Source: Bacteroidota bacterium
GTDB lineage: Bacteria; Bacteroidota; Bacteroidia; AKYH767-A; 2013-40CM-41-45
Assembly: GCA_003389385.1 (NCBI GenBank)
Contig: QQVM01000017.1
Span: 10,443 to 74,442 of the forward strand
Direction of reading: 5' to 3'
DNA length: 64,000 nt
Below, piece after piece: positions 1,227 through 44,002 of this stretch (position 1 is its first letter; every line of letters starts with the position of its first letter). The translations under genes were made by a program, and so were the position numbers. The notes below the pieces were generated by a model that was given only the letters and a program-made list of their open reading frames with translations, did not search any database and had not been told where the DNA came from.

Positions 1227-1274
1227 TCGGCCTTAACAGTATATTTGCTTATCGCGCTTCATGACGTCCTTTAA

Positions 1275-1910: not shown

Positions 1911-1922
1911 TCTGAGTTTAAA

Positions 1923-1970
1923 AAGCGAAAGCCGGGCGATCACTTCCCAGGCTTTCGCTTAATTTTTATT
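1923..1970 (+). terminator. Rho-independent terminator
   Basis: Perfect 11-bp stem aagcgaaagcc / ggctttcgctt followed by a T-run (aatttttatt). Confidence 0.6.
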
Positions 1971-1975
1971 CAAAC

Positions 1976-4276: not shown

Positions 4277-4278
4277 TT

Positions 4279-4986: not shown

Positions 4987-5651
4987 GACTTGCAGGTGAA
5001 ATAATGGCCGCGGGCATGACCTGTGTATCTGATCTGAAGCAAAAAATTTTCCAAATGGTCACGCAGGAGAAGCCAATGCGCATACTCGAGACCGGCACCT
5101 ATCTTGGCACTGGATCTACGCGTGCGTTCGTTGATGCGGCCATATCATCTGGGCATTCGCTACAATTTCATACAATTGAGGTAAACGAAGGGCACTTTGA
5201 ATTGGCTAGGAAAAATCTATCAGACGCACTATTAAATTTCAAATGTTCATTTTACATGTGGAATGGACTGAGTGTTCCTGCATCATTAATTCCCTCAGAA
5301 ATTGATGTTGATTTCCCGGAAAGCGTCATTACTGACTCCTTCGATGAATCATTTTATCATAATGAGATTGTTGGATTTATTCAGGACGATTGCATTTCAA
5401 AGGCCATATTGGCGATGGGAGGATTCCCAGACATGATACTGCTTGACTCCGCTGGCCACATGGGCACAATAGAATTTTGCCACCTTATGTCTCTGCATGA
5501 CGGCATCACCCCATTCACTTTGATTCTGGACGACACCATGCATCGAAAGCACTACAAAACGATGGAGCTGGTTCGCAAAGATAAATCATTTAAAATCTTA
5601 CATGAGTCTGAGTCAAAATTTGGCTTTGCAATTATTCAATTTAAACCATGA
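4983..5651 (+). CDS. SAM-dependent methyltransferase-like protein (CmcI/TylF-like O-methyltransferase fold)
   Basis: MRILETGTYLGTGSTRAF resembles motif I of CmcI-family O-methyltransferases. Translationally coupled to both neighbours. Confidence 0.4.
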   Translation: MRLAGEIMAAGMTCVSDLKQKIFQMVTQEKPMRILETGTYLGTGSTRAFVDAAISSGHSLQFHTIEVNEGHFELARKNLSDALLNFKCSFYMWNGLSVPASLIPSEIDVDFPESVITDSFDESFYHNEIVGFIQDDCISKAILAMGGFPDMILLDSAGHMGTIEFCHLMSLHDGITPFTLILDDTMHRKHYKTMELVRKDKSFKILHESESKFGFAIIQFKP

Positions 5652-6448
5652 AGCGAATCGCATTCACAATTATGTACAACGCAGCGCACCATCTGCGCCA
5701 TTGCGATTTTGCGCTAAAAATGATCTCCATGTTTGATCATTGGATCATTGCCGAAGGCTTTGCTGGCAACAAAGGGTCTACCAGCTGGTGCAATGAATTG
5801 AACTGCCCGATCAGGTCAATTGATGACACAATCAATTTGATCGGCGATTATGCCGATAAGCAATCTGAGTGCGTTCGCCTTGTCTCGCCGCGAAAGTGGG
5901 AAAGCAAAGATGAAATGGTGAACGCTTGCATCGATATAGCCAGAGATATTATTGACGGGCAGGACTGCTTCTTATGGCAGGTTGACGCGGACGAGCACTG
6001 GACTGATGATCAACTGTCCAGAAGCGAGAAGTCAATCATTGCCTCTTGCGCCGACACAGGCATGTTTTTGTGCAATTATTTCATAGGAGAAAATTTGATC
6101 GTACGCGGTCAATGGGGCGAAGGACTGATGACGCCATACCGCAGGTTATGGCATTGGAAGGGACAGCGTTTCGCATCGCATGAGCCCCCTATACTTTCTG
6201 GCGGCAACGGAAAAGAAATGCTTCTGCAAGAGCGATTCGATCATTATGCGTACTTCTTTGAACACGACGTGAAATTTAAAGCCATGTACTATAGTGGCCA
6301 TGAGCACGTGTATCGTAATTGGAAAAAAATTCAATCGGGATCTGTTAAATTTCCTGCGCCTATATCTACGCTTTTCTCAGGAAAAATGTTTTCCTCCACC
6401 AAATCAAGAATCTACCAAATCAAAAATCATGAGAAAGAGGCTATTTAA
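5648..6448 (+). CDS. Putative GT2-like glycosyltransferase
   Basis: The N-terminus RIAFTIMYNAAHHL resembles the GT2 start (IvIPvyN...L), and there is a DxD-like WQVDADEHW. Overlaps the upstream gene by 4 nt. Confidence 0.35.
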   Translation: MKRIAFTIMYNAAHHLRHCDFALKMISMFDHWIIAEGFAGNKGSTSWCNELNCPIRSIDDTINLIGDYADKQSECVRLVSPRKWESKDEMVNACIDIARDIIDGQDCFLWQVDADEHWTDDQLSRSEKSIIASCADTGMFLCNYFIGENLIVRGQWGEGLMTPYRRLWHWKGQRFASHEPPILSGGNGKEMLLQERFDHYAYFFEHDVKFKAMYYSGHEHVYRNWKKIQSGSVKFPAPISTLFSGKMFSSTKSRIYQIKNHEKEAI

Positions 6449-6552
6449 ACCAAGGCAATGCCGCGGCACCAAGCAAGGGTGCAGTTACACTCCCAAAGAG
6501 CGGATGAAAAGCGGGTTGATAATTCTATTCAGAAGAGCAAACAAAAGAGAAA

Positions 6553-8442
6553 ATGCAGCAAGAAATCCAGCATATTAATTCCCTGCTCGAGCAGGCGAAG
6601 GCAAAAATTAAAAAAGGCGTCTCGATTAAGAAGTCTGTGAATGATGTAAGCGTTCGCGAGTACCAGGAATTTAATCCGCTTTATGCGCGCGCATGTCAGA
6701 TACGCGACAAGATCGCAGTGCACGCCGAAGGAGATGAGTTTCCGGAGCATCTATTTGTCGTTCGTGCCCCGCGCATGACAAAGGATGAATTTGATTACAT
6801 CAAATCCAACTACAAGAATGAAACGCGCCCGGTGTATCTGGATTTTTTCAATACCGTAATGAGAATTTTCCATGATAGCAACTGGTCAATCGACTGGCCC
6901 TCCTTTGATGAAGACGGTAATCCGCTTGCTCAATACATGGAGAATTTGCCCATCTACGGATCGGAGGAAACTTTTACGCGCGATATTGTCACGCACGCCA
7001 AGCTGACAGATGCCATGGGCGTGATCGTGGTAAAGCCGCGCACGATCAAAACAATTAAGAATGATCAGGGCGAGGAAGTGATCGATAACCGGGAAAGATT
7101 CGAGCCTCTGCCATATTATTTCCGATGCGATCAAGTGCTGTTTTACGAGGAAGGCGAGTATTACTTCCTTCTGTCTGACGAAAAATCAGAAGTAGATTAT
7201 GGTGGCCGAAAATCAAAAGAGGGTGTTGTATTCGAATATCACGACAAAAATCACTTTTACCGAATAGAGCAGTACGGGAGGAAAAGCGACTATAATTTCA
7301 GAGTCATCCATCAATATTCTCATAACTGGAACCGCGTTACAGTGCACCGATTAAAAGGTGTTCCACGTGTAACAAAAGATGGTGTGCTACATGTTTCTCC
7401 TTTTTATTTCGCAGTTGATATTCTTGATCTTGTCACATTGAATGCGACCAATCTGCAAACGATCATCAACAATGCAGCGTATCCGTATCGCATTGTCTAC
7501 GGCGATGAATGCGATTTTCAAATCACACTCTCGGACAATACTGAAGCCGCCTGTAACGGGGGAAAGATTTTCAATTCGGATTTGAATGCTACCATTACGT
7601 GTCCTTCCTGCAATGGCAGCGGGCTAAAAAGCAGACTCTCGCCTCTTGGTGTGATGATTATCCGTGCGCCAAGCACTGAATTCAAGGGTGATGCCGAACT
7701 CAAGCAAGATCCAATCAAATGGGTGGAGCCCTCGACCAATCAGCAGGATTTTTTAAAGAAAAAAATTGCAAGCGATGAAATTCGTGCGCGCAAAATCATA
7801 CACCTGCATTCTGGTAATTCGGAGGCCTCTGCCGGGCCGGACTTGGCTACGAAAATGGTCTTGGATTTAAAAGCCCTGTATGCATTTCTAAAGCCGATCT
7901 CTGATCAGATATTTGACCTCAAGTCTTTCATCATCTGCGCAAGTGGATGGATACGTTACGCCGAAGAATCAAAAAAAATGAATCCGGTGATTTCTTATCC
8001 GGTATCATATGACTTTAAAACCGAGACGGATTATATTTCGCAGATATCAGAAGCGATCAAGGCGGGACTTCCTCCGATGGTCATCCATTCAATCATGTTC
8101 CGGTTTTTACAGTCTCTTTACTACAACGAAAAGCGCACGGCAGACGTATTCTCGCTCATTGTTTCGGCAGACAGACTGCTCGTCTTTGATTCGCAAACCA
8201 TACAAAGCAAGATCAGGGACGGTCTGGCTGAAAAATGGGAGTCAGTGCTGCACGACAGCGCGATCATTTTCGTGAATGAGATGCTGATTGCAGAGCCGGA
8301 ATTCTTTGATAAATACAGCCCTGAAGAAAGGAAAGAAAAGCTGATCGAGGCGGCAAAGAAAAAGGCCGCAGACATTGAGGCCGCACGAAAAGCTTCTGCC
8401 GGAGCTTCGGCTCAGTCCCGCGTAAATGAAATCCTGAATTGA
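6553..8442 (+). CDS. Phage portal protein (putative)
   Basis: 629-aa protein directly upstream of a Mu-F-like head morphogenesis gene and overlapping it; no Walker A motif, which argues against terminase. The assignment rests on size and position. Confidence 0.45.
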   Translation: MQQEIQHINSLLEQAKAKIKKGVSIKKSVNDVSVREYQEFNPLYARACQIRDKIAVHAEGDEFPEHLFVVRAPRMTKDEFDYIKSNYKNETRPVYLDFFNTVMRIFHDSNWSIDWPSFDEDGNPLAQYMENLPIYGSEETFTRDIVTHAKLTDAMGVIVVKPRTIKTIKNDQGEEVIDNRERFEPLPYYFRCDQVLFYEEGEYYFLLSDEKSEVDYGGRKSKEGVVFEYHDKNHFYRIEQYGRKSDYNFRVIHQYSHNWNRVTVHRLKGVPRVTKDGVLHVSPFYFAVDILDLVTLNATNLQTIINNAAYPYRIVYGDECDFQITLSDNTEAACNGGKIFNSDLNATITCPSCNGSGLKSRLSPLGVMIIRAPSTEFKGDAELKQDPIKWVEPSTNQQDFLKKKIASDEIRARKIIHLHSGNSEASAGPDLATKMVLDLKALYAFLKPISDQIFDLKSFIICASGWIRYAEESKKMNPVISYPVSYDFKTETDYISQISEAIKAGLPPMVIHSIMFRFLQSLYYNEKRTADVFSLIVSADRLLVFDSQTIQSKIRDGLAEKWESVLHDSAIIFVNEMLIAEPEFFDKYSPEERKEKLIEAAKKKAADIEAARKASAGASAQSRVNEILN

Positions 8443-9353
8443 TGCGCTCGGTAGAGGATATCATCGAAAAGAAAATCAAGCTGCTGGAATCAGTCGGCGA
8501 AGAGTTTCTGGAGCAGGTGCAAAAAACACAACTCAAGTTATATCGTGAGCTGCTTGAAATACTTGGATCACTGGAAATTTCAAAGGGTCGCATTGTGCTA
8601 AATACAGAAAACCTTCGCATTACTGAAGATGTACTCGAAGAATTGCGCGAGATGCTATTTGGCTCTGAATACATCGAGGCCGTGCGATCGGTGGCAAGCG
8701 GTATGGAAAAAGGAAAGGAATTGTCAGATGAATATTTTCAAAAGGCTTTCCCTGATTTTTCCCAAAGCGAATTGGCGGATAAGATTTTTGAGAATTCGAA
8801 AAAAAATGCCGTGGATCTGCTGGCAGGAGCAACGCCTGAAACAGGATTTCTGCAGGAGTTGAAAGATGAAATTTCGCTTGCAGTCAATAGCGGCGCATCC
8901 TGGCAGGACACTGTGGATCGGCTCCGGCTGATTGCAATCGGAGATGAAACACAAGAAGTCGACGGCAAGCTTTTAAAGTATGCCAAGCAAGTAGCCAGTG
9001 ATAGCATTGCCATTTCAGATCGCTCTTACAATAGCGCGATTGCAGATGAATTGGAGTCAGAATGGTTTCTTTTTGCGGGCGACGTACTGCCCACATCGCG
9101 GCAGTTCTGCATCGAGCGTTCATGGAAATATTTCCATTACAAAGAGGTGGAAAGCTGGGCAGAGCTCGAATGGTCTGGGAAAAATGATGCGACCAATAAA
9201 GAGACAATTTATTCCACGCTAGGAGGATGGCGTTGCCAGCATTCACTCATTCCCGTATCGATCGACACCGTGCCTCGCGATGTAATTGAAAGAAACATGG
9301 CCAACGGAAACTTTACTCCGAGTGAATTTGAAAAGCAAGAATTGGAATTATAA
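8439..9353 (+). CDS. Phage head morphogenesis protein (Mu gpF / SPP1 gp7 family)
   Basis: C-terminal conserved region with the W-R-C motif (LGGWRCQHSLIPV) typical of Phage_Mu_F domains; sits after the portal gene. Confidence 0.6.
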   Translation: MMRSVEDIIEKKIKLLESVGEEFLEQVQKTQLKLYRELLEILGSLEISKGRIVLNTENLRITEDVLEELREMLFGSEYIEAVRSVASGMEKGKELSDEYFQKAFPDFSQSELADKIFENSKKNAVDLLAGATPETGFLQELKDEISLAVNSGASWQDTVDRLRLIAIGDETQEVDGKLLKYAKQVASDSIAISDRSYNSAIADELESEWFLFAGDVLPTSRQFCIERSWKYFHYKEVESWAELEWSGKNDATNKETIYSTLGGWRCQHSLIPVSIDTVPRDVIERNMANGNFTPSEFEKQELEL

Positions 9354-9365
9354 TACACACAGACA

Positions 9366-9710
9366 ATGAAACAAGAATTGATTCGCTGCATCAATGCGCA
9401 AAAAAACAAAGTGAGATTCTTCCCCAAACGATTCGCCATGGACAAGCACTGGCAGAATTCAACTGGATTTATTCCAGACACGTCAGAACCTATTCAGGTG
9501 GGCGATCTTTTGAAGGCTAAAACGGAGGCCCTAATTAATGACAATATTGGAGCCAATAACGTCCAGCAAATCACTGATGATGTTGATATATTTGAAATGC
9601 GCTCTGGCGACGAAAACACTGGGCATGTAAATTTGGTATCAGAAACAGCTCACACGAAAAAGTCCGCAAATCGCAAGCGAACATCGGGCAAAAAAGTAAG
9701 TAAAACATGA
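9366..9710 (+). CDS. Hypothetical small prophage protein
   Basis: 114-aa ORF, basic C-terminus. Confidence 0.3.
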   Translation: MKQELIRCINAQKNKVRFFPKRFAMDKHWQNSTGFIPDTSEPIQVGDLLKAKTEALINDNIGANNVQQITDDVDIFEMRSGDENTGHVNLVSETAHTKKSANRKRTSGKKVSKT

Positions 9711-10561
9711 ACAAAGAAATTCTTGACTTCCTGGGAATACAGGAAGATGATGCGAAGGATTTAAAGGGTTTTTCAAGTAAATTCTCTGAACTTTTTATCC
9801 GAAAGCAAAATTTGAATGACTCGAAGTCTCCCGAATACAAAGAGATCGCACCTTCGATCATTGGCAAAGTAGCTGGCAATGCTCAGACGGTCATCACGCG
9901 CAAGCTCAAAGAAGCGGGCGTGGACATATCCAAAAATGACTTTAAGGATAAGATGATCGAAGAGGTCGTGGAGTTTGCATTTGATCAACTTTCCGGTGCG
10001 TATGGCACCAAGATTAAAGACCTTGAGAAGGCTGCTGCTGCAGGCGGAGATCAGGCATTGACTGATTTGAAAGAAAAGTATGAGTCATTGCAAAAGAAAA
10101 ATCAGGACACAGAAAGCGCGCTCTCAACGCTGAAAAGTGCTTTAAGTGAAAAGGAAAAAAACTTTGCAAGCGAACTCAAGGGATTCAAGCTGAAGTCTGC
10201 CAAGCGCGATTTATTCGGCTCAGCACAGTATGCAGAGGGCATTCAGGATGTGGCCAAGATTGGATTTCAGACGCATATTGAAAACAATTTCTCGCTTGAT
10301 TTGGACGAAAACGAATCGCTGGTACTTCTCACTAAAGAGGGTCACCGGATTCCGAATCCGAAAAAAGCAGGCGAGTTTCTCTCTCCGCTTGACATCATGA
10401 AAGAAGAGGGATTGAAGCTCGGAGTATGGGCTGCTAATCCGCATGAGAAGGAAAAGAAAAAGCCTTTTGAGGCAAAAAATAATTTTGGTAATCAAGGCCA
10501 TCAGGGAGCATTTCCTGCTGGTGGAAATACCAGAAAGATCAGCAGTGCGATAAAGCAGTAA
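9707..10561 (+). CDS. Putative scaffolding protein
   Basis: Lys/Glu-rich coiled-coil-like 284-aa protein between the head-morphogenesis and capsid genes. Confidence 0.4.
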   Translation: MNKEILDFLGIQEDDAKDLKGFSSKFSELFIRKQNLNDSKSPEYKEIAPSIIGKVAGNAQTVITRKLKEAGVDISKNDFKDKMIEEVVEFAFDQLSGAYGTKIKDLEKAAAAGGDQALTDLKEKYESLQKKNQDTESALSTLKSALSEKEKNFASELKGFKLKSAKRDLFGSAQYAEGIQDVAKIGFQTHIENNFSLDLDENESLVLLTKEGHRIPNPKKAGEFLSPLDIMKEEGLKLGVWAANPHEKEKKKPFEAKNNFGNQGHQGAFPAGGNTRKISSAIKQ

Positions 10562-10725
10562 TGCTTTATCAAAAGCGCGAATAGCACTCGACTGATTCGT
10601 TGCATCCGGCTGCAAATGAGCCGGAATAGGTTGCCCAGTCCTGCGGGCATGAACGTCAGGATGTGTTGCCAGATACGCAGGCATGAATGCGGATATTTCA
10701 AACCTAAAAAACGAATCTTAAAAAA

Positions 10726-11814
10726 ATGAGTGGATCAAACCTGATAGCAAACTGTCCTGACATTCAGGACGAGCTCAATAATTATTTCTTGGAGTGCGAC
10801 GCGAGCGCGCTCCGTCAACCTGCCCCGTTCTTTGATTTCCTTTGGAGCGACCTGAACCGTAGCGGCATCCAGCAGATGATCGCGCCAGGTGGCGGAAAAA
10901 TCAAAAAAGTAGTGCTTCGCTATGATCAGCTGATCATGGAAGACGAGGCCACCGAGGTGAACATGCTCGAGAAAAGCTGCACTGCGGAAACCAAGCGCGG
11001 CGAACTGACCGAGAGCTACACGATCGATCCGTCATCCGGATTTCAATTTGAAGAATTGATCTCAGCCGCTGATTACGCTTACGGCTGCAAGTCAACCGAG
11101 TGGTATCTGGCGAAAAAAATCCAGAAACTCATCGACGCAACCGTGCGTAAGGCACAGACAGTGCTGGCAGAAAGGGCCGTGGCACTGGTCGGCAACTGGG
11201 ACGCAGAAGTAGATCCTGTTGTAGACGTAGGAGGGGTGGACTTTCTAAAAGTGGCCACAAAGAAAACCGGCTCATCTGATATCAATCCTGGCGCGTTCGA
11301 GGACATAGATGCGGCTGCATTGTTGACCAATTTCTGCACAACTCCCTTGATTTTCTCTGGAACGTCCCTGTGGAAGTATTATAGGACAATGCTTGCGGGA
11401 TGCTGCTCAGCGCAGGGCATCGACCTTTCTGAGATGCTCTCTCAGTACGGAAAGGCAGTCATGTACGACCGCAAGCTGGCAGCAGCATTGGGCGGAAATG
11501 ATTTTGCCGTGATGACTATGCCTAAAGTGCTGCAGCCTATTTATTACACGGCAAATGATGATTTGAATCATGATGTGCTAGCTGCAATCGGCGGAAAAGC
11601 CGTGTTCACGGGCGCAAACTACATGAAGCTGGTCGTGCAAGATCCGCAATCTGGCTTGCCGGTGGATCTGACCATTGCAGATAACTGCGGCGATGTGTCG
11701 CTCATCACACGCGCTTGCGTGGATGTAAAGCCGTTGCCTACGGATATATTCCCTTCTGCGCACAGCATGAGCGGTGTGACATATTTCGCAGGCATAAAGG
11801 TGGTGAATTCCTGA
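10726..11814 (+). CDS. Putative major capsid protein
   Basis: 362-aa protein directly after the scaffold-like gene; size and position fit an HK97-fold capsid protein; no motif-level confirmation. Confidence 0.45.
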   Translation: MSGSNLIANCPDIQDELNNYFLECDASALRQPAPFFDFLWSDLNRSGIQQMIAPGGGKIKKVVLRYDQLIMEDEATEVNMLEKSCTAETKRGELTESYTIDPSSGFQFEELISAADYAYGCKSTEWYLAKKIQKLIDATVRKAQTVLAERAVALVGNWDAEVDPVVDVGGVDFLKVATKKTGSSDINPGAFEDIDAAALLTNFCTTPLIFSGTSLWKYYRTMLAGCCSAQGIDLSEMLSQYGKAVMYDRKLAAALGGNDFAVMTMPKVLQPIYYTANDDLNHDVLAAIGGKAVFTGANYMKLVVQDPQSGLPVDLTIADNCGDVSLITRACVDVKPLPTDIFPSAHSMSGVTYFAGIKVVNS

Positions 11815-11876
11815 CCATCCTAAATGAGGGCGGGCGGATGGTGCTATCCGCCTGCTCTTGTTTAACTTAAATAAGC

Positions 11877-12920
11877 ATGTACCAAGAAGAACAAAATATT
11901 ACAGAGTGCTTTAAAGGATTGGTCACCATGAAGGACGTATGCCCTGAGGTAGCACGCTCCGAATACAGCGTAGACATCTCATCAGTGGGAATTTACGCAA
12001 GTGAATTGACGAGCTACCTTACCGATCAGTATGCGAGCGAAAAAACCTTGTTTCTTGGTAAATACGAAAGCGCCGTTCAAGTTCTAAGGAATGACATACG
12101 TTCACATTTTGCGCCAACGTACAGGGCGCTTTCTGTACTGAATAACCAGCGCGCTGGCATGTTTCATGAAAATCAAAAAATCATTGAGGGTGTCGCAGGA
12201 AGAGTCCGCGGGCTTCAAGTTCAGTATAATGACACATCATCGTATCTCGACTTTTATCTCTCCTCGCTTTCGCTGCAATTAAATTATGATGGCGAAGTCA
12301 AAATCTTGGTCTACGACCTGATACAGGCCAAGCTGCTGGACGAAATACAGGTAAATGTCACCGCCGGAGAAATCGAAACAATTTACCTTCGAAAAATTTA
12401 CAATGCGCCGCGCCAGCGGCTGAACCTACTGATCGGCTATGAAACCGACGGCATCGACAGCATGAAAGCGACAGTGGATGCGTCCGGATGCAATGGCTGC
12501 GGAGATTTACCTGTTCAAAAAAGCAGGTTACTTTCGCTTCGTCCCGCATCGATTTCAGCTGCATCGCAAAAGATCGATCAAAACATTAAGGGAGAAAAAG
12601 ACACGGCAGGCATCAGCATTACATACTCCCTTCAGTGTAATCACGAAAATTGGACATGCGATTTTTCAAATCTTATGGCCCTGCCTCTGGCCTATCGCAC
12701 TTCGGCAGAAATACTTGACCATGCATACGCTCATGCATCAAATGAGCAAGTCAACATGCGCACAGGCGTGAATAAAGAAGACCTGCTGATTCGCAGGGAT
12801 CTATACGAAAGAAAATATTCAGAGCAGCTCAGCCTGCTTTTAAAAACAATAAAACCTCCGCACGATGAAATCTGCTTTCAATGCCGAAAGTCAATCCGGA
12901 CAGCCGTACTGCTTCCGTGA
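11877..12920 (+). CDS. Hypothetical prophage structural-module protein
   Basis: 347-aa ORF downstream of the capsid gene. Confidence 0.35.
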   Translation: MYQEEQNITECFKGLVTMKDVCPEVARSEYSVDISSVGIYASELTSYLTDQYASEKTLFLGKYESAVQVLRNDIRSHFAPTYRALSVLNNQRAGMFHENQKIIEGVAGRVRGLQVQYNDTSSYLDFYLSSLSLQLNYDGEVKILVYDLIQAKLLDEIQVNVTAGEIETIYLRKIYNAPRQRLNLLIGYETDGIDSMKATVDASGCNGCGDLPVQKSRLLSLRPASISAASQKIDQNIKGEKDTAGISITYSLQCNHENWTCDFSNLMALPLAYRTSAEILDHAYAHASNEQVNMRTGVNKEDLLIRRDLYERKYSEQLSLLLKTIKPPHDEICFQCRKSIRTAVLLP

Positions 12921-13052
12921 TTTGAAGACAGCCAAAATGAAGCGCGCGTGCATGAGCACTCGCCTGGTGCTTACGCTGGTGTACTATTTCTCGGATGTGT
13001 CACCAGGTGATTTAAAGTACAAATTCGTTCACATGGATTACTTCATGAACTG

Positions 13053-13652
13053 ATGACCATTGATGAGTATATAGCAAAGATTGACCGGAAATTCCAATAC
13101 CGGGAACAACTGGTGAAGCCGTTCACTACTGCCGTGCTCAGCACTGTGGCCAAACAAGCCAAGCGAATTTTTTCCGATGGCATCAAAAGCAATGGAAGCG
13201 ACATAGGGCAGTATGACACGAAACGTCCGCTGTATATCAACCCGAACGAATCCCCAAGAGCGGGAGCAACAAGAGTCTCGCAGGGGCTTCACCCCACGCA
13301 GGGGAAGCACGGCGATCATACATTTAAAAATGGCAAAGTTCACAAAACCACCTACGTTAATAATTACAAGGATTTAAGGAACAGGATCGGCCGCAGAATT
13401 GACAAGGTAAATTTGACGCTCACTAATGACATGTTTAGCGATTTGTGCAACGCGCAGTCGCCTTCGAAAGCCGCGCCAGACCGAATTTCTGATGCAGAAT
13501 ATCACCTGAAATTCAAACGCACGCACAATGCAGAGAAATGGGAGGGCCTTGAAAAAAAATATGGAAAGATCGGGGATCTGACCGCGCAGGAAAAAGAAGC
13601 CTTCTTTAAGAGCATTGATTTTAATTTCAGAAAATACCTTAGTGAACTATGA
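13053..13652 (+). CDS. Hypothetical prophage protein
   Basis: 199-aa ORF overlapping the next gene by 4 nt. Confidence 0.35.
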   Translation: MTIDEYIAKIDRKFQYREQLVKPFTTAVLSTVAKQAKRIFSDGIKSNGSDIGQYDTKRPLYINPNESPRAGATRVSQGLHPTQGKHGDHTFKNGKVHKTTYVNNYKDLRNRIGRRIDKVNLTLTNDMFSDLCNAQSPSKAAPDRISDAEYHLKFKRTHNAEKWEGLEKKYGKIGDLTAQEKEAFFKSIDFNFRKYLSEL

Positions 13653-14230
13653 TACGCCAAGCGCACGAACATTTATCGGGTATCATCAGATCGATGGAAT
13701 TATTCCGCACGGTGATTGACAAAGCAGAAACTGTATTTGATGACAAGGGCGGATTTCCTGCGCATTATGTCGGATCGGGAAAGTATAAGCCGATCAATTT
13801 GCAATCGGATGCAGGCGTATCGTATATCCGTCAAAACGGCCACATTGAAATTGAAAACTCAGGCATAGAGCCGCGATCAATGGGCGAGACGTATAAGCTG
13901 GTCACATTGCCTTTGAAGTTGGTATTCTGCATTGATAAAGAAGCTGTAGAGGGTGATTCCGCCTATTCATCCGGATTGCTATTTGCAACGCTGATGAAAA
14001 AAATCACTCAATCAGGCCCTTTACTTCGAAAGAATATCGGTGCTGAAAAAACATTATTTGACGTAATATCATACGAGGACAGAAGGGACGTGGTATTGAC
14101 AGAAGAATTTCCGGGAAGCGAAGTGAAAGACCTTCTTGCAAGATACACTCTCGCGTCAATGGAAATCAAGGTGCGGACAGACATTTCACTATCATGCTTA
14201 GAAGAATTATGTAATGAAGAGCAATACTAA
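13649..14230 (+). CDS. Hypothetical prophage protein
   Basis: 193-aa ORF, translationally coupled to the upstream gene. Confidence 0.35.
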   Translation: MIRQAHEHLSGIIRSMELFRTVIDKAETVFDDKGGFPAHYVGSGKYKPINLQSDAGVSYIRQNGHIEIENSGIEPRSMGETYKLVTLPLKLVFCIDKEAVEGDSAYSSGLLFATLMKKITQSGPLLRKNIGAEKTLFDVISYEDRRDVVLTEEFPGSEVKDLLARYTLASMEIKVRTDISLSCLEELCNEEQY

Positions 14231-14408
14231 AGTAAAGCAAAATCTCTCTGCATACGAGGCGCACCGCAAGGGGCGAACGTACATGCAAAGTAAAAATATC
14301 GGAATCTTTGACAGCGAGCCCTCGCAGCCATCGCATGAATTGCGCGAAGACGGAGGGCATGAATTGCGCGAAGATTCTTCCAACGAACTTAGAAACTAAT
14401 AATTTAAA

Positions 14409-15164
14409 ATGACAGATAAAAAAACAACAGAAGAAGATCTTATTCCTGCAGAACTCAGGAACCTGGACGTATTGATGCGATGCGTTGCGGATGGCGACAA
14501 CTATAAAATCGACTTAGGTATAGTTCGATCGATCTTGTTTCCTGGCGCATCTGCAGACGAAGACGGAAACACCTTTCTAAACGGAGCGACTCTTGTAAAG
14601 CTAAACGGAGCAACTGCACAAAACTGTACGTTTATTGGAGGAAAAGTAATACTTGACGGGTCAGCTTGGACAGGATGCACAGTAATTCAATCATCAGACA
14701 GCACACTCGAAGCGGACGATGAAGTTCAGACCGGAAAGTCATACACGGAGGGATTGGGAAGTACTTTTGTCAAGGTGCTTGCGCTAAATAACACAGGCAC
14801 ATTTTCTGATCCTAATATTAATATTCCAACTAAATGTAAATATGTTGGAAAGTTTCAGGTAGTCAACGGTGCTGAAAGTCAAAAGCAGATAAGCGCAACT
14901 ACGATACTAAATGCTCCAGACAAAATTCCGTTTGCCCTGATCTGCGACGATGATCACGTGGCAACGTACAATTCATCACTCATAATCACAATGCAAGGAT
15001 TGGGAGATATTAACACAAATTTAGTGCTTAATGATCTATTAACAACCGAAGTGTTCGGAGGCGAATTGTCATTGAGGTTTCCGGGTGAAAGAATACTGTT
15101 AAGAAGAACTCCTCAAGGGCACTTTGTTGTCGAAAATCATAATAAGATTCAATTCCCTGCATAA
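14409..15164 (+). CDS. Hypothetical protein with beta-helix-like repeats (possible tail spike or depolymerase fragment)
   Basis: Repetitive NGATLVKLNGATAQNCTFIGGKVILDGSAWTGCTV segments suggest parallel beta-helix rungs. Confidence 0.3.
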   Translation: MTDKKTTEEDLIPAELRNLDVLMRCVADGDNYKIDLGIVRSILFPGASADEDGNTFLNGATLVKLNGATAQNCTFIGGKVILDGSAWTGCTVIQSSDSTLEADDEVQTGKSYTEGLGSTFVKVLALNNTGTFSDPNINIPTKCKYVGKFQVVNGAESQKQISATTILNAPDKIPFALICDDDHVATYNSSLIITMQGLGDINTNLVLNDLLTTEVFGGELSLRFPGERILLRRTPQGHFVVENHNKIQFPA

Positions 15165-15397
15165 CCAAATCCAATAAAATAAAAACCTATGAATTACAAT
15201 GCAATCAAAATAATGTTGAATGATTCATTCAATGTTCATCTTTGTCAACTAAGTGTACTTTCTGGAAACGACAGCGGCGTTTTTTCATGCGCGGAAAGAT
15301 ATGTGTATATGGGTATGGAGGCATATACAGAGGGAACAGATGATGAGGTGGCTGCGAGTGCGGTGAAATACTTAAGAACCGATTTAGGAATGTCATC

Positions 15398-16522
15398 ATG
15401 AAGAATATTTTACAAAACAATGTGGTAGGATGGGCCGCTAGGCTTATTCTATTTTTCATACTGATTTGCATAGGCATCTCAATGGCAAGGTGTCAGACCC
15501 GTGACAGCATTGTCACCACAATCACCAATCATTCAAAGCAAGTGTGCTATGACAGCACATGGCAGACGGTGAAGGTGGATACCTTCAAAGTGCCTGTGAA
15601 TACAGTTGACGCCCCCATCAGAGGTATGTATGTCAGCACTCAGGTTAAGATTGGTGACATCGCATCAGAAGAAGCTTTCTTAAAGTGGTGCAAGAGCAAG
15701 GGTGTGAACATGGTAAATTTCTATGCTCGCAGCTTCTTATACGATTCATCCAAGCGTTCACAGCTTGCTGCTTTTGTGAAGAAAGCAAAAGAGCAGTACG
15801 GAGTGCTGGCCGTCACGGTAGATGTAAGGCTAACCGATAATCGGGAATACCCCGGATGGGTGGCATACTTTGAGAAGTACAAGGGCACTTCATCCATGAT
15901 AGAACCGCTGGCAGAATTTGAGCCTTATTCATCCAGCATGGGCCAAAGCTCAGACGTGTACTTCGCAAGCTATACCGATAAATACGCTCACTTTTTCATG
16001 ATGCTACGCAAAATGTCTGAGCTGACTAAGCAGTATGGTGTTAAGTGGAATTGGTATCAGGGATGGGTGGGTAATAAATATCTATCAGGATCGGAGAGCG
16101 ACATTCAGAAGGCGAATGATTCCCTTGTGAAGTATGTGGATCGGGTGTTCGTATCAAACTACGTTTCCAAATCAGATTACATCAGTACCAATCCCTCTTA
16201 CGGTGCTTGGGATAACCGCATGGACAAGCGACTAGAACGCATTGCTTTGGGTATGGCTAAGATGAGGCCGGGAGCTAAAATGGATATTGTGGAAATTGTT
16301 TCACTGGAACTCAAGAAGTGGGGAGCTGGAAATGACTTCTTAGGTGAAGTATATGCTTGTCCGGTGAACACTACTAATATGTGTCATTCATTCTACGGAA
16401 GCAGGTATGACAAGGCAGTGGAGGAGTACAATAAATCATCTGCAAACATATTGAAATATACAGTCCTTGTTGGACGGACAATGTTTTACCAAAAGTACGC
16501 TGTATTGGCGCAGCCAAACTAA
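15398..16522 (+). CDS. Membrane-anchored hypothetical protein (possible glycoside-hydrolase-like TIM barrel)
   Basis: N-terminal TM helix (LILFFILICIGISMA); 374 aa; W/Y-rich and secreted-enzyme-like, but no confirmed motif. Confidence 0.35.
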   Translation: MKNILQNNVVGWAARLILFFILICIGISMARCQTRDSIVTTITNHSKQVCYDSTWQTVKVDTFKVPVNTVDAPIRGMYVSTQVKIGDIASEEAFLKWCKSKGVNMVNFYARSFLYDSSKRSQLAAFVKKAKEQYGVLAVTVDVRLTDNREYPGWVAYFEKYKGTSSMIEPLAEFEPYSSSMGQSSDVYFASYTDKYAHFFMMLRKMSELTKQYGVKWNWYQGWVGNKYLSGSESDIQKANDSLVKYVDRVFVSNYVSKSDYISTNPSYGAWDNRMDKRLERIALGMAKMRPGAKMDIVEIVSLELKKWGAGNDFLGEVYACPVNTTNMCHSFYGSRYDKAVEEYNKSSANILKYTVLVGRTMFYQKYAVLAQPN

Positions 16523-16524
16523 CC

Positions 16525-17205
16525 TTGTTTCATGTGGAAATCTACAATTTCATCCTTAAACACAAAGACTTTATTTCAGGTCTTGTTGGAGTTGCAACAC
16601 TGTATGTTTTATATAAATCGAACATTCATAAGCACATAATAATGTTCTGGAAAAGCAGAATAGAGCCTAAGATGTGGGTGTCGGCGAAAGTAATTAATAG
16701 CAACCTTTCTGAGATGAAAGAGATGATTGCTACTTCGATCGAAAACCAGAATAAGCTTTCGTCTGCGATTAAGGAACTGCACGCCGATTATCAGGAAGTT
16801 AAGAATATGGTAGCTCCCAATGGGGGAAGCAGTTTGATAGACCTTGCAAACTGGCTTTATGCAAAATCAATAGCGCAGGACTTCGATAATGAAGCGGCAA
16901 TACTGGCCCAGGCGAATAAATCAGGGCACTTAATGAATGTGAATAGAATGTTCACAAGAGTCACAGGGCGCACCGAAGGAGAACTAATTGGCAACGGATG
17001 GGTGAATGCGATTGTCGGGCAGGACAGGCAAAGAGTCATACATGAATGGAAGGATGCGCTGGCGGAGGGGAGAGATTACCTGAGTGAGTTTTCCTTATCA
17101 GACCTTGATGGAAATGAATCGGCGGTAGAGGCTCGTTTCAGCAGAATGTACGACAAGAAGGGGAATGTACTTGGTTATTACGTCAGGATGCACTTAATAG
17201 GTTAA
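16525..17205 (+). CDS. PAS-domain protein
   Basis: C-terminal region HLMNVNRMFTRVTGRTEGELIGNGWVNAIVGQDRQRV matches the PAS core (reaction ... GW ... hP ... D). Confidence 0.5.
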   Translation: MFHVEIYNFILKHKDFISGLVGVATLYVLYKSNIHKHIIMFWKSRIEPKMWVSAKVINSNLSEMKEMIATSIENQNKLSSAIKELHADYQEVKNMVAPNGGSSLIDLANWLYAKSIAQDFDNEAAILAQANKSGHLMNVNRMFTRVTGRTEGELIGNGWVNAIVGQDRQRVIHEWKDALAEGRDYLSEFSLSDLDGNESAVEARFSRMYDKKGNVLGYYVRMHLIG

Positions 17206-17269
17206 ACTGATATTATCAAAATAAACTAACTCTATTAATATTATTTAAACCTTAAACAAAAAAAACAAA

Positions 17270-17740
17270 ATGAAAAAACAACTCTTTGCAATTCTAATGA
17301 TTTTAGCAATGTCCTTTACGATGGGATATGCGCAAGATTCTCCTGCTGTCACCGATCCTGTGACGGTTTTAGTGACTGATCCGGTGACTGAGCCGACTGA
17401 CAGCTCAATTGCTGATCCAAGTGTGATAAAGTACACAGATCAGGAGGTGAGCGGCCTGTACATTCAATGGTTCATCAATCCTTTGATGTTTTCGATTTTG
17501 ATTTTGCTTATCACAGGGCTTGTAATTAAAGTAGTCAACTTAAAAGATGAAGGCAAGCAATACGCATCATGGGGAATTGGTATAGTCGCCGGGACATTTG
17601 CAAATCTGATGGGATGGGGAATGTTTGAGGGATTAACAATATTTCATGCCGCAATTGTCGGGTTCGTCCATGCAGGCGGAAGCAATCTGCTTTACAAAAC
17701 AGGAGCATTTAACAAGGTGCTTGGCGTTAAAAAGAATTGA
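17270..17740 (+). CDS. Membrane protein, holin candidate
   Basis: N-terminal signal-like segment followed by two hydrophobic helices; first gene of the lysis-like block. Confidence 0.35.
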   Translation: MKKQLFAILMILAMSFTMGYAQDSPAVTDPVTVLVTDPVTEPTDSSIADPSVIKYTDQEVSGLYIQWFINPLMFSILILLITGLVIKVVNLKDEGKQYASWGIGIVAGTFANLMGWGMFEGLTIFHAAIVGFVHAGGSNLLYKTGAFNKVLGVKKN

Positions 17741-17934
17741 TCATGGCAAAGCAGAAAATTAAGGGATACATCGAAAAGTGGCGCACAAAGACCCGCTGGT
17801 ATGTACATGTGCTACACCTGAACAGAAAAATCTCAGACTTGTCAGTCTATAAAACCGCCGGCGGGCGAAATAAAAAAGTGAGACGATTGCTTGAGCTCTA
17901 TACCGGATACATCGTCCGGAACAGAAAGAAGTGA
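17737..17934 (+). CDS. Small basic hypothetical protein
   Basis: 65-aa ORF overlapping the upstream gene; followed by a terminator-like hairpin at 17961-17998. Confidence 0.25.
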   Translation: MIMAKQKIKGYIEKWRTKTRWYVHVLHLNRKISDLSVYKTAGGRNKKVRRLLELYTGYIVRNRKK

Positions 17935-18009
17935 GTGAGTAGTTTTCGTGTTTCATGTTGGCCGTCCGTCTGGTAAAAAGGGCGGGCGGTTTCTTTTAAA
18001 GATTACTTT

Positions 18010-18492
18010 ATGATTATCACACAGCAACGGTTTAAGTGGACGGATACATCCACGCTATCGCAATGGTTCATTGACGGGGAAGCAAATTTCTATTCGAACA
18101 AATACGACAAGATGCTTCCGGTGTACGCGCTGGAAGACAAAGACCGCGACTTGCACTCCTACATGACAGATGCAGAGGTGCGAAAAGTAAAAGTCCATGG
18201 CGAAACTGCAATCCCGTACGGAAAATTCAGAGTGATCATGTCATTTTCTGCAAGGTTTAAAAAGATCATGCCAGAGGTGATCGGAGTCCCTGGATTTTCA
18301 GGAATTAGAATTCACAATGGATCGTTAGTCACTCATACAGAAGGGTGCCCTCTGATTGGGTACAAACATCATTATATGCCTGACAAAGATCAGTTCTGGG
18401 TGTCGCAGTCAAGGGACTGCTTTGCTGAAATCATGTCGATGCTGAACATCGCAAATGAAAAAGAAAAAATGTTTTTAGAGATCATCAAATGA
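18010..18492 (+). CDS. Endolysin candidate with an H-x7-TEGC motif (uncharacterised His/Cys domain)
   Basis: 160-aa soluble protein directly upstream of the spanin-like pair. It contains IRIHNGSLVTHTEGCPLIG, and the same motif occurs in the RHS-tip domain at 41682-42281. Confidence 0.4.
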   Translation: MIITQQRFKWTDTSTLSQWFIDGEANFYSNKYDKMLPVYALEDKDRDLHSYMTDAEVRKVKVHGETAIPYGKFRVIMSFSARFKKIMPEVIGVPGFSGIRIHNGSLVTHTEGCPLIGYKHHYMPDKDQFWVSQSRDCFAEIMSMLNIANEKEKMFLEIIK

Positions 18493-18794
18493 CTTTATCA
18501 AAATTTCTTCTGATCATAATTTGCAGCATGGCGGTAGGCATTCTCATTGGATGGATGATTTTTACTCGCCCCGTGCAGATTCCCGCACCGGCATCATGCA
18601 AGGGCCTGATTGAGCTTCAGCACAAAGTCGATTCCATGAAAGGCCACATTCACCGGCTGAATGAGAAAAATAATTTAAGCAAACAACGAGTTTCAATACT
18701 GGAAAATGAAAACAGGATTCTTAAAAATCGCATTAATGACTTTTCTAAGTCAGATGTTCGCGAGTGGCTTGACGGCTACGGCGCAAATCAGTGA
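18489..18794 (+). CDS. i-spanin-like protein
   Basis: N-terminal TM helix followed by a coiled-coil-prone periplasmic segment; overlaps both neighbouring genes. Confidence 0.4.
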   Translation: MTLSKFLLIIICSMAVGILIGWMIFTRPVQIPAPASCKGLIELQHKVDSMKGHIHRLNEKNNLSKQRVSILENENRILKNRINDFSKSDVREWLDGYGANQ

Positions 18795-19095
18795 TACAAT
18801 TTGCATCGACATAAATACGGCAAAGCGAATGATCTATGACATAGAGCGAGGCCAGGTAAACGACAGCATTATTGCTGAGCTGAATTTTCAAGTTCAAAAT
18901 CAGGATTCTATTCAAAAACATTTATCCGGAATCGTGGGTCAATATAAAGAGCAATTCACATCCTGCCTTCAAAGTTATGCGGCCATTGAAACCGAAGCGT
19001 TGCGACTTAAGAAAAAAAGTGAAAAGCAGGGAAAATGGATCAAGCGCTTGACAATACTGGGCGCAATTTTGTCAGCTGGGATCTATTTTAAGTAA
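18706..19095 (+). CDS. o-spanin-like or second lysis accessory protein
   Basis: Its start lies inside the i-spanin-like gene in another frame, the classic overlapped architecture; N-terminal signal-like segment and C-terminal hydrophobic segment. Confidence 0.3.
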   Translation: MKTGFLKIALMTFLSQMFASGLTATAQISDTICIDINTAKRMIYDIERGQVNDSIIAELNFQVQNQDSIQKHLSGIVGQYKEQFTSCLQSYAAIETEALRLKKKSEKQGKWIKRLTILGAILSAGIYFK

Positions 19096-19108
19096 CAATA
19101 TTGCAAGC

Positions 19109-20338
19109 ATGAAAAAATTAACCTGGTCAACCAAGACCGTGAAGGTGAAAGACCTTAAACCATTTGAAATAAACCCAAGAAAAATATCGGATGAAAAAAG
19201 GCAGAAGTTAATACAAAGCCTTGAAAAGTTTGACTTGGCGGAAATCCCTGCCGTAAATACGGACATGAAAATAATCGGAGGCAATCAAAGAATTGCAGCC
19301 CTTGTGTTACTTGACAGGGGCGATGAGCTGATCGATGTTCGTGTCCCGAGCCGTAAGCTATCGGAGAAGGAGGTCAAAGAATACAATCTGATTAGCAACA
19401 CCCATGCAGGTGAATGGGACTTTGAAATACTGGACATGGAGTTTTCGGATATAGATTTGGAGGATATCGGATTTGATATTCATGGGCTTCAAAGTTGGAA
19501 TTTAGCGCAAAATCAGCAAATGGCATCAGGAGTGGAGGATGATGATTTTGACGTGCCGCTTGGCGGGTCAAATACCGATATTGTTGAGGGCGACATCTTT
19601 GATATAGGCCGACATCGCCTGATGTGTGGCAGCAGCACCCAGACCGATACGTGGGAGCGGTTAATGGGGCAGGAAATGGCCGACCTTGTAATAACCGACA
19701 CACCTTACAATGTAGCTTATGTCGGAAAGACGAAAGATGCCATGAAAATTCAAAATGATGCCCAATCGGATGGCAATTTTTACCAATTCCTTTATGACTT
19801 ATATACGGCTCTCGGAAGTTACACGAAAAAGGGGGTGGCTTGGTATGTTTGGCACGCTGATTCTGAAGGGGCGAATTTCCGCAAAGCAATGGCTGATTCA
19901 GGGATAATGGTAAAACAATGTTTAATTTGGGTAAAAAATAGCCTGGTGATGGGGCGACAGGATTACCATTGGGCGCACGAGCCATGCCTTTACGGATGGA
20001 AAGAAGGCGCGGCTCACAAATGGTATTCAGATCGGAAACAAACAACCGTTTTAAACTTTGACAGGCCGTCAAGGAATGCCGAACATCCGACCATGAAGCC
20101 GGTTCCGCTTATTGCTTACCAGATGGGCAACAGCAGCAAGGCAGGAGACATAGTGTGCGATGGGTTTGGAGGAAGTGGTACGACAATGGTTGCCGCACAT
20201 CAAATGAATAGAACATGCAGGATGATGGAGCTTGACCCGAAATACTGTCAGGTAATCATTGACAGAATGATCAAGCTCGATCCAGCAATCGAAATAAAAA
20301 GAAACGGTAAATCATGGAACTCACAGAAGAATTCCTAA
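19109..20338 (+). CDS. ParB-like nuclease domain fused to a DNA N6-adenine/N4-cytosine methyltransferase
   Basis: N-terminal ParB/Srx-like region (KDLKPFEINPRK..GGNQRIAAL). Methylase motif IV is ITDTPYN (DPPY-like) and motif I is DGFGGSGTT. Confidence 0.7.
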   Translation: MKKLTWSTKTVKVKDLKPFEINPRKISDEKRQKLIQSLEKFDLAEIPAVNTDMKIIGGNQRIAALVLLDRGDELIDVRVPSRKLSEKEVKEYNLISNTHAGEWDFEILDMEFSDIDLEDIGFDIHGLQSWNLAQNQQMASGVEDDDFDVPLGGSNTDIVEGDIFDIGRHRLMCGSSTQTDTWERLMGQEMADLVITDTPYNVAYVGKTKDAMKIQNDAQSDGNFYQFLYDLYTALGSYTKKGVAWYVWHADSEGANFRKAMADSGIMVKQCLIWVKNSLVMGRQDYHWAHEPCLYGWKEGAAHKWYSDRKQTTVLNFDRPSRNAEHPTMKPVPLIAYQMGNSSKAGDIVCDGFGGSGTTMVAAHQMNRTCRMMELDPKYCQVIIDRMIKLDPAIEIKRNGKSWNSQKNS

Positions 20339-20601
20339 AGAAAATCACCCAAATGGGAACGCTCGGATATCCGCCTGAAAAGATTATCAATGTACTGGAT
20401 ATTGAAGATGGGGATAAATTCATAAAAGAATTTTCAAATAAAAATTCTAAAGTACAGAAGCATTATCAAAAGGGAGTTGATAAGGCAGATTACATGATCG
20501 ACATCAAATTATTTGAAATGGCAAAGAACGGAGTCCTTAAGGCACTCGATCGGTATGAGGAGCGCAAGTATGCATCGCTTCGGGAGCAGAAAACAAAATG
20601 A
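20314..20601 (+). CDS. Hypothetical small protein
   Basis: 95-aa ORF overlapping the methylase 3' end; last plus-strand prophage gene before the integrase. Confidence 0.3.
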   Translation: MELTEEFLKKITQMGTLGYPPEKIINVLDIEDGDKFIKEFSNKNSKVQKHYQKGVDKADYMIDIKLFEMAKNGVLKALDRYEERKYASLREQKTK

Positions 20602-20744: not shown

Positions 20745-21848
20745 TTATGTCCGAAACTTTTTAAATTCTGCATCCATCAGCGGATTGGTGACCTTGGCAT
20801 AGATGGCTACGGTGCGCCGAGATATGCCCATGTATTCGGCCACGACATCCGAGGTAATGCCAGATTCCAGGCAGCGCACAGCAAAGGTATGCCTGCCCAC
20901 GTGTGATGTGATGGGCATATCAATCTCCGGATTACACATTTTTGCAATCGCTTTCAAATTTTCGTTTACGGTTGGCTCCGCAGGACAGGGCCTCATATGA
21001 AGTAGCTTTTCTGTGAGCTGTTTCAATTTATCATGCATCTGAAGGGATACCAGTTGGCCGTTCTTTTTTGCGCGAAGAATCAAGCGATCTTCCCGTATAA
21101 ATTCGGAAGAAAACCTGAGCCAGTCTGAGATGCGAAGCCCGCTGTAGCATCCCAAAAGGAAGTACATGCCGGAGACTAGCATTGTTTCGCTCATGGGAAG
21201 CTTCAGTGCGCGCTCCCATGCCTGTACCTGCGAAAGCGTAAGATGTATCCGATCCGGATTTTGGTATTTGGGCATAGGATACTTTTTGAATGGGTCTTCG
21301 CTTGTCAACCTATTATGCATGGCATCCAGATATACGGTGCGCATTTTTTTCCAAAGCTTATGAATTGTGTTTCCCTCAAGCGGCACCCGGGCAAGGTGCT
21401 GATGAAACAGCGCAAGCCAGCGCGGTGTAATGCCGTGCAGAGTAATGGATTTATCAAACTCCTGAATTCTGGCCAATGCCTGACGGTACGTGTCCAGGGT
21501 GCTGCCCTCCAGCACATCTCTCTTTCCGTCGATATATCCGGAAAAGTACTCGCAGAAACTCCGGTTCACGCCCTGGATGAAATCCGGCGTCACCGGTACG
21601 TCCATCAGCTGCATTCGCCGAATTTCCTGCTCGATTTCGGAAATCCTTTTTTTGATCTTCAAATTGATCATCTGATGCTGCGGATGACTCTTTCGAACTT
21701 CGCTGCCAGTCCAATCATCCGGTGAAATGAATTCATTCAATGACTTGACAATTCGCTTTCCGGATATCCTGATAATGATTTTCAAGGCCCGCTTGCCCTC
21801 TTTGTTCTTGCCGCCCATCAGCCGCGGATGTATCGTAACTTTCTGCAT
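20745..21848 (-). CDS. int: Tyrosine-type site-specific integrase
   Basis: C-terminal catalytic residues HVGRHTFAV and IYAKV (R-H-R-Y family). The start is trimmed to the ATG at 21848, because the longer ORF runs into the tRNA (the translated tRNA gives GFESRPDR). Confidence 0.8.
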   Translation of the reverse strand: MQKVTIHPRLMGGKNKEGKRALKIIIRISGKRIVKSLNEFISPDDWTGSEVRKSHPQHQMINLKIKKRISEIEQEIRRMQLMDVPVTPDFIQGVNRSFCEYFSGYIDGKRDVLEGSTLDTYRQALARIQEFDKSITLHGITPRWLALFHQHLARVPLEGNTIHKLWKKMRTVYLDAMHNRLTSEDPFKKYPMPKYQNPDRIHLTLSQVQAWERALKLPMSETMLVSGMYFLLGCYSGLRISDWLRFSSEFIREDRLILRAKKNGQLVSLQMHDKLKQLTEKLLHMRPCPAEPTVNENLKAIAKMCNPEIDMPITSHVGRHTFAVRCLESGITSDVVAEYMGISRRTVAIYAKVTNPLMDAEFKKFRT

Positions 21849-21990
21849 CGCCCTGTAGTGTGGCCACGCTGTAGCTACAGGGTGTAGCCAAATTCGTAGC
21901 CGTAAAGTGTCGGAAATGTAAATATTTGCCGGATAATAAACGCTATAAAATAGAAAATCCCGCGAAAAAGCGGGATTTGAACTAATTAAG

Positions 21991-22064
21991 CGGTCCGGAC
22001 GGGACTCGAACCCGCGACCCCATGCGTGACAGGCATGTATTCTAACCAACTGAACTACCGAACC
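21991..22064 (-). tRNA. tRNA-Asp (GTC)
   Basis: Cloverleaf folded by hand: acceptor GGTTCGG/CCGGACC, anticodon stem CATGC/GCATG with loop CTGTCAC, T-arm GCGGG-TTCGAGT-CCCGT; 74 nt with no encoded CCA. Confidence 0.75.
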
Positions 22065-43934: not shown

Positions 43935-44002
43935 CGGGGTGTTCGGGCTACTTACACAGAGTTAGTGCATAGAACGAGTGAACAGGTTTGTCTGTTCACT
44001 CG
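43935..44002 (+). repeat. Right copy of the 68-bp perfect direct repeat
   Basis: Same 68 bp as 40875-40942, including a second copy of the terminator hairpin. Confidence 0.7.

Follow-up and report, generated by a model that had tools for sequence, protein, structure and literature searches.

The DNA analysed here (the window) is a stretch of 64,000 nucleotides (64 kb) from a Bacteroidota bacterium (assembly GCA_003389385.1, contig QQVM01000017.1, positions 10,443 to 74,442), in which two plus-strand reading frames carry the same motif, H-x7-TEGC-x-L-x-G. The first is an open reading frame (ORF) of 160 aa at 18010..18492, located in a prophage, which contains IRIHNGSLVTHTEGCPLIG with His102 encoded at 18313-18315 and Cys113 at 18346-18348; the second is a frame at 41682..42281, located at the end of an RHS cassette, which contains ILLHIENFPSNTEGCLLCG with its His at 42075-42077 and its Cys at 42108-42110. 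When all six translated frames of the window were searched with the regular expression H.{7}TEGC.L.G, exactly two matches were returned, both at these sites; 20 mononucleotide shuffles of the window gave none. The tetrapeptide TEGC was found at the same two sites only (expected number, 0.45). An earlier note, made from the sequence without database searches, had drawn attention to this motif at both places, with the same His-to-Cys spacing and matching Leu and Gly residues, and had proposed that it marks a shared catalytic His/Cys domain; the motif was confirmed by the six-frame search and by translation, and the domain was borne out by the family matches and the profile-profile alignment set out below.

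Both proteins were assigned to Pfam family PF18925 (DUF5675), the phage protein with 65.5 bits (E 5e-18) over 18010..18492 and the toxin tip with 61.2 bits (E 1.1e-16) over 41685..42278, in each case above the curated gathering threshold of 26.7 bits, and both matched phrog_1501 of the PHROGs database, a group with no assigned function. The homologue sets, with 183 sequences for the phage protein and 14 for the toxin, were aligned separately, and PF18925 was present in all retrieved homologues. Alignment of the resulting phage-type and RHS-type profiles with hhalign was significant (98.6% probability, E 1e-15) and extended over 133 columns, so that the entire domain, first beta-strand through C-terminal strand, is covered. 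When 65 sequences were aligned jointly, invariance was restricted to a Glu (L-E), P-x-G (within I-P-[EY]-G-x-Y), the His, and G-C; of the motif residues, H, G and C are invariant in the phage-type and joint alignments alike, and in the RHS-type alignment T joins them. The family consensus, H-x-G-N-x4-T-x-G-C-h-h-x-G, includes the motif Leu and Gly noted earlier. Conservation of the Glu of TEGC is confined to the phage type, this position being variable in the RHS type. The RHS type is further distinguished by a conserved, beta-rich N-terminal extension of approximately 55 residues and, often, by a second Cys (C-L-L-P-G-C), both of which are absent from the phage type. A pairwise BLASTP comparison of the phage protein with the toxin tip aligned the 19-residue motif alone (E 0.022), so that the earlier reader had caught the sole stretch visible by eye. 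Taken by itself, this short alignment would suit a coincidental motif match between unrelated proteins, a reading which is refuted by the common Pfam assignment, by the alignment of the subfamily profiles and by the structural comparison given below, and to which we attach practically no credence.

Structural modelling, in which the 160-residue phage protein reached a pLDDT of 97.7, indicates that DUF5675 adopts the YkuD beta-sandwich catalytic fold. Its structural relatives are the LD-carboxypeptidases Pgp2 of C. jejuni (6xj7; tabulated figures 8.3 and 10.2) and Csd6 of H. pylori (4xzz; 7.8 and 9.3), the meso-diaminopimelic acid (meso-DAP)-protein amidase DpaA (8ikr; 7.7 and 8.7) and the Salmonella type VI secretion system (T6SS) effector Tlde1a (7uma; 7.4 and 7.9). 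The models thereby support the L,D-transpeptidase-like fold suggested in the earlier note, and on this basis DUF5675 is predicted to be a divergent branch of the YkuD fold (L,D-transpeptidase, MEROPS C82), albeit a distantly related one. In Pfam neither protein matched PF03734 (YkuD) at E<=1 and neither had a significant family other than DUF5675; profile searches of PDB sequences and Foldseek searches with DUF5675 returned no significant YkuD relative; and hhalign gave no significant match of DUF5675 to the four E. coli sequences LdtA, LdtB, LdtC and DpaA, or to a 26-sequence DpaA-family alignment that is itself shallow, with members at least 60% identical. The best DUF5675-YkuD result from hhalign was a pairwise E of 0.015 at 3% probability, with ambiguous gap placement around the Cys. 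As no sequence-level match to YkuD models was obtained, DUF5675 is regarded as a structural relative and not as a sequence-level member of that family. The pieces that were locally aligned are YkuD hallmark motifs, with RIPEGTYNI corresponding to KSPEGFYSV of DpaA and K-I-L-L-H to Y-L-M-I-H, and DUF5675 possesses the catalytic motif H-x(n)-[ST]-x-G-C-h with invariant His and Cys. In canonical YkuD enzymes the His is separated from the [ST] residue by 14-17 positions. The H-x7-T spacing of DUF5675 is shorter than this, although short spacings are also seen in DpaA and Tlde1a. The H...T-x-G-C turn is paralleled by IHGTN...S-H-G-C in LdtA-C, by H135...S140-I-G-C143 in DpaA and by H121...S128-H129-G-C131 in Tlde1a, where the Ser links the His to the backbone of the Cys (PMC9638812), and we infer that the His and Cys of DUF5675 are spatially equivalent to the YkuD catalytic pair.

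The phage copy is encoded within a co-oriented, tightly packed block of genes (6..20601, plus strand) which ends with a ParB/methyltransferase gene (phrog_498, E 1.6e-132). Beyond it, a tyrosine integrase gene on the minus strand (20745..22049; phrog_1 integrase, E 3.8e-25) marks the prophage end, and the block together with the integrase constitutes a prophage or integrated element. A tRNA-Asp(GTC) gene identified by ARAGORN (21990..22064, minus strand) abuts the integrase and is the probable integration site; as the integrase ORF overlaps this tRNA, the true start of the integrase probably lies downstream of the listed TTG. No second att copy of the tRNA-Asp was found within the window, where only remnants of a tRNA 5' half occur nearby, and the prophage probably extends past window position 1. 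The DUF5675 protein itself has neither a signal peptide nor a transmembrane (TM) segment. Upstream of it, 17270..17740 (plus strand) encodes a membrane protein of 156 aa whose hydropathy profile shows a strong TM segment at residues 62-93 in addition to other hydrophobic stretches and an N-terminus resembling a signal; its position makes it a holin candidate. Downstream, the start of a gene for a 101-aa protein (18489..18794, plus strand) overlaps the stop of 18010..18492 by 4 nt; this protein, with an N-terminal TM anchor (residues 1-29) and a charged, helix-prone tail, is a spanin-like candidate by its anatomy, and the 129-aa ORF that in turn overlaps it (18706..19095, plus strand; signal-like N-terminus, hydrophobic C-terminal tail) is possibly a second lysis accessory protein. 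When these neighbours were compared with Pfam and PHROGs, no holin or spanin family and no other significant family was detected, so that their roles are proposed from anatomy, and the interpretation of the region as a lysis cassette draws on that anatomy and on the contexts of homologues. Among the other ORFs scanned between 6 and 19095, no match to a wall-hydrolase family was found in Pfam or PHROGs.

Homologues of the phage copy were detected by tblastn in 105 phage records, mostly of crAss-like phages of Bacteroides, a group that is abundant in the human gut, with Vibrio, Cellulophaga and Sphingomonas phages among the remainder. The protein is 30-48% identical to crAss-like phage proteins whose genes adjoin holin genes, and which are labelled in those records as "L,D-carboxypeptidase/transpeptidase" or "transpeptidase catalytic domain protein". 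The crAss-like gene order runs from "lysis regulatory protein" to "lysis regulatory protein/holin" and then directly to the DUF5675 gene, while in two Vibrio phages an ORF with a TM helix comes after the DUF5675 ORF. In the cultured lytic phage Kolpuevirus Bc03 (OQ198718.1), DUF5675 appears to be the sole annotated wall-active enzyme of the whole genome. The window copy belongs by score to PF18925/PHROG 1501, the family that also includes these crAss-like proteins and LysPd160, and differs from them in nothing essential, although it is carried by a temperate element, in the genome of an uncultured Bacteroidota organism, and not by a lytic crAss-like phage. Its status as a candidate endolysin is well supported by this context.

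The second copy follows an orphan C-terminal RHS core fragment (41268..41681, plus strand; TIGR03696 Rhs_assc_core, E 3.9e-20 over 41268..41678). The core fragment ends in ...NPIRYIDPDGRAP and is succeeded by a TAA codon at 41679-41681 and then, in frame, by the DUF5675 toxin tip (41682..42281, plus strand), in which the beta-rich extension precedes the YkuD-like domain and the motif reads H131-x-E-N-x4-T-E-G-C142 (numbered from the Y at 41685). The junction, ...YIDPDGRAP, is of the DPxG type, and homologues share it without the stop. The closest of these, P0121 at locus L007 (75% identical), reads ...DPDGRAPKEYNVDKNTGQIK... with an AAA (Lys) codon in place of the TAA of the window, a difference of one base that creates a nonsense codon, with an assembly error as the other possibility. 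We rejected programmed read-through as an explanation, since no feature supports it and the homologue has an ordinary Lys codon. The nonsense codon cuts the toxin tip off from the RHS core, and the first possible internal start in the toxin frame, a GTG at 41883, would cost part of the domain. The description of 41682..42281 as an RHS toxin tip, as given in the earlier note, therefore stands in that an RHS core precedes it in frame, but not in the sense of an intact gene. Its orphan status was upheld, as no RHS repeats occur upstream of the core fragment, which begins approximately 390 nt after a tRNA-Glu gene and is accompanied by no full-length shell (RHS/YD repeats and N-terminal trafficking domain).

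That the toxin subfamily is a genuine RHS payload is evident from its relatives. A phmmer search with this subfamily against 1.84 billion cluster representatives returned 575 clusters at E<=1e-3, 276 of them at E<=1e-10, and among the best matches the domain was found repeatedly at the extreme C-terminus of proteins of 1,000-2,600 residues; in the five long matches that were scanned it occurred alongside DUF6443, RHS repeats, or both. DUF5675 caps many Bacteroidota RHS toxins, and relatives of the window tip do so on DUF6443/RHS proteins of 1,400-2,600 residues. Locus L008 belongs to a metagenome-assembled genome that is complete at 3.9 Mb. Here (L008:3577-10951) a frameshift within the RHS core is all that divides an RHS gene of 2,161 aa from P0125, the gene of the DUF5675 tip, and more orphan RHS cassettes, one of them with Ntox24, lie downstream.

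Directly downstream of the toxin frame, and starting 5 nt after its stop, 42286..42930 (plus strand) encodes a protein of 214 aa from MKLISTLLLFCMGFTSC which displays a lipoprotein-type signal, a DGPHPD motif and a C-terminal HGH. In each of the three other loci examined, the gene that immediately follows the toxin is a homologue (L007:2195-2863, L008:10990-11634 and L009:10977-11615), with 62, 44 and 35% identity, respectively, in the family alignment and a BLASTP identity of 59% (E 2e-97) to that of L007. All homologues have a signal or lipobox N-terminus, an invariant DGPHPD and a C-terminal HGH (D-x-H-G-H), the His-rich nature of which may reflect metal binding. No relative of the family was found in Pfam or among PDB sequences, and Imm16 and Imm57, the immunity families listed for Tox-LD-peptidase, did not match it. 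From this conserved linkage, the 42286..42930 product is a candidate cognate immunity protein for the DUF5675 toxin. As the conserved partner is exported, the toxin would be expected to act in the periplasm, as in the case of Tlde1 and its immunity protein Tldi1, a location in keeping with a peptidoglycan target.

We consider it likely that both frames specify YkuD-fold DUF5675 cysteine peptidases directed against peptidoglycan, the phage copy acting as an endolysin and the other as an RHS payload with a linked immunity gene, the toxin of the window having been inactivated. This interpretation builds on the homology, the fold class, the invariant His and Cys, the gene contexts, the linkage of the immunity-like gene and the nonsense codon. 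By analogy with the YkuD fold family, from which the proposed chemistry is taken, the invariant Cys, C113 of the phage enzyme and C142 of the toxin, would be activated as a thiolate by the invariant His 11 residues upstream, with the Thr of the T-x-G-C turn keeping it in position. Attack by the Cys on the carbonyl at an L-centre of the stem peptide, most likely at meso-DAP3/D-Ala4 or at a meso-DAP crosslink or tether, would give a thioacyl-enzyme that is resolved by hydrolysis if water reacts with it or by exchange if an amine does. The phage enzyme would most likely serve as the endolysin of a cassette beside the integrase in which a membrane protein precedes it and a TM/coiled-coil protein follows, and, having no signal peptide, would reach the wall after permeabilisation of the inner membrane by the membrane protein or proteins. 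In an RHS context, the DUF5675 payload would be held in the RHS shell, freed at the DPxG junction and delivered into the periplasm of a neighbour, while kin would be protected by the exported lipoprotein encoded immediately downstream. The window locus itself would now most likely function as an immunity gene and recombination reservoir instead of an active weapon, the toxin cassette probably being silent and the intact immunity gene its functional part.

The alternatives concern the role of the phage protein, the reaction of the RHS copy and the target of both. The phage DUF5675 protein may be an accessory wall-remodelling enzyme, such as an L,D-carboxypeptidase/transpeptidase, that alters stem peptides to time lysis, block superinfection or aid genome entry, the true lysin being an unrecognised prophage protein. 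Its closest structural relatives (Pgp2, Csd6 and Tlde1a) trim or exchange stem-peptide termini and are not rapidly lytic per se, most prophage ORFs have no recognisable family, among which a novel lysin could hide, and GenBank records use the label "carboxypeptidase/transpeptidase" and not "endolysin". Set against these points, the position directly after holin-type genes is conserved in crAss-like phages, no other wall hydrolase is annotated in the cultured lytic phage that carries DUF5675 or recognisable in this prophage, and the missing signal peptide fits holin-dependent release, so that we judge an accessory role to be decidedly unlikely and favour the endolysin.

For the RHS copy, killing may proceed by transpeptidase exchange as in Tlde1, with no wall degradation, in which case toxin and lysin would have the fold but not the reaction in common. 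In Tlde1 this exchange puts non-canonical D-amino acids in the place of D-Ala4 and is poisonous to wall synthesis, and Tlde1a performs both the carboxypeptidase and the exchange reaction in one active site (PMC9638812). The N-terminal subdomain and second Cys that are found only in the toxin could form a capping or exchange pocket; however, no equivalent of the exchange-pocket Arg of Tlde1a was mapped, no superposition having been made, and the invariant E, P-x-G, H and G-C are common to both subfamilies, which leaves killing by exchange a minority possibility. It is improbable, in our view, that the target is instead another envelope bond, whether the amide tether between meso-DAP and outer-membrane lipoprotein, which is the kind of bond acted on by DpaA, or a protein, as for plain cysteine proteases. 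A bolder proposal, which we advance as a long shot, is that DUF5675 represents a mechanistically distinct lytic class, namely a thiol L,D-endopeptidase with a covalent intermediate that cuts a bond uncut by this fold in characterised endolysin classes, that the DGPHPD...HGH lipoproteins are a new class of inhibitor, and that orphan immunity genes such as 42286..42930 are kept partly to blunt DUF5675 phage lysins as well as RHS toxins. If true, this would link interbacterial immunity and phage lysis within one genome.

Much of the framework for the two putative peptidoglycan peptidases was already in place. DUF5675 is catalogued in Pfam, and its likeness to L,D-transpeptidases is recorded in crAss-like annotations and in a 2026 preprint (bioRxiv 10.64898/2026.04.11.717860), the available portions of which group the DUF5675 protein LysPd160 structurally with C82 peptidases and propose a "C82-like" lysin family. 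Those portions report no activity for LysPd160 and do not mention the RHS-borne subfamily, neither "RHS" nor "toxin" occurring in them, and literature on PF18925 or on the crAss transpeptidase and holin yielded nothing useful beyond GenBank annotations. RHS tips with an LD-peptidase fold have been known since the description of Tox-LD-peptidase (Zhang et al. 2012; PMC3482391), which has H, S and C as its residues, linked immunity genes, and Bacteroidetes among its hosts. The DUF5675 tip resembles Tox-LD-peptidase in fold, in its RHS C-terminal place and in its linked immunity gene, but the immunity-like protein found here differs from Imm16 and Imm57. Tlde1 is a characterised effector of the YkuD fold, and Tlde1a (PDB 7UMA; PMC9638812) is a fold relative to which no sequence-level relationship was detected, so that DUF5675 is not placed in the Tlde1 sequence family. 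It differs in that the DUF5675 toxin is an RHS C-terminal tip whereas Tlde1a is free T6SS cargo, in that the second motif His is not conserved in DUF5675, in the N-terminal subdomain of the toxin, and in an immunity family that has no Pfam or PDB-sequence relative. Compared to the housekeeping YkuD enzymes (LdtA-E, DpaA/YafK, Pgp2, Csd6 and LdtMt2), DUF5675 has a shorter catalytic loop and lacks a signal peptide and LysM or peptidoglycan-binding domains, and would be used as a weapon or lysin and not in wall maturation. As each half of the phage-toxin link had been noted before, the conceptual advance is small. The window nonetheless illustrates the general principle that wall-degrading domains move between phage lysis modules and interbacterial toxins, and adds a concrete pair, a 160-residue soluble lysin candidate and an RHS tip with a conserved candidate immunity partner. 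Identification of the bond that is cut would close a real gap in annotation and might provide a new scaffold for enzybiotics.

The toxin and immunity genes lie on a 3.07-kb island bracketed by an exact 68-nt direct repeat, the left copy of which (40874..40941, plus strand) starts in the last 8 nt of the tRNA-Glu(TTC) gene (40809..40881) and the right copy of which is at 43944..44011 (plus strand). The repeat includes a hairpin, the G+C content of the island is 36% as against 39-42% in its flanks, and the arrangement looks like an att-type duplication of a small island that has no integrase of its own. A second orphan remnant in the island, at 42993-43229, contains ELIHSHPD and has the look of a truncated toxin tip of JAB/JAMM type, its Toxin-JAB1 match (E 0.01) falling short of the cut-off, and a 174-aa ORF with a lipoprotein-like N-terminus at 43231-43755 is possibly its immunity gene. 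Outside the island, 36505-38367 (minus strand) encodes a low-complexity protein of 620 aa with a lipoprotein-like signal, Tyr/Gly/His/Ser-rich repeats and a long Pro/Ser/Asn/Arg-rich tail.

In the prophage, at least ten large co-oriented ORFs of 250-770 aa between 6 and 16522 (plus strand) have no significant Pfam or PHROG match, and its structural module is very divergent. A PAS-domain protein (PF08447, E 2e-10) encoded at 16525-17205 (plus strand), directly upstream of the lysis-type cassette, is an unusual neighbour. Beside the tRNA-Asp, two tandem 104-nt units on the minus strand (22091-22194 and 22195-22298) repeat the 5' half of this tRNA. In both, the anticodon arm differs from that of the tRNA-Asp and the T arm is broken, and neither is called by ARAGORN; they may represent what is left of tRNA genes where the prophage integrated.
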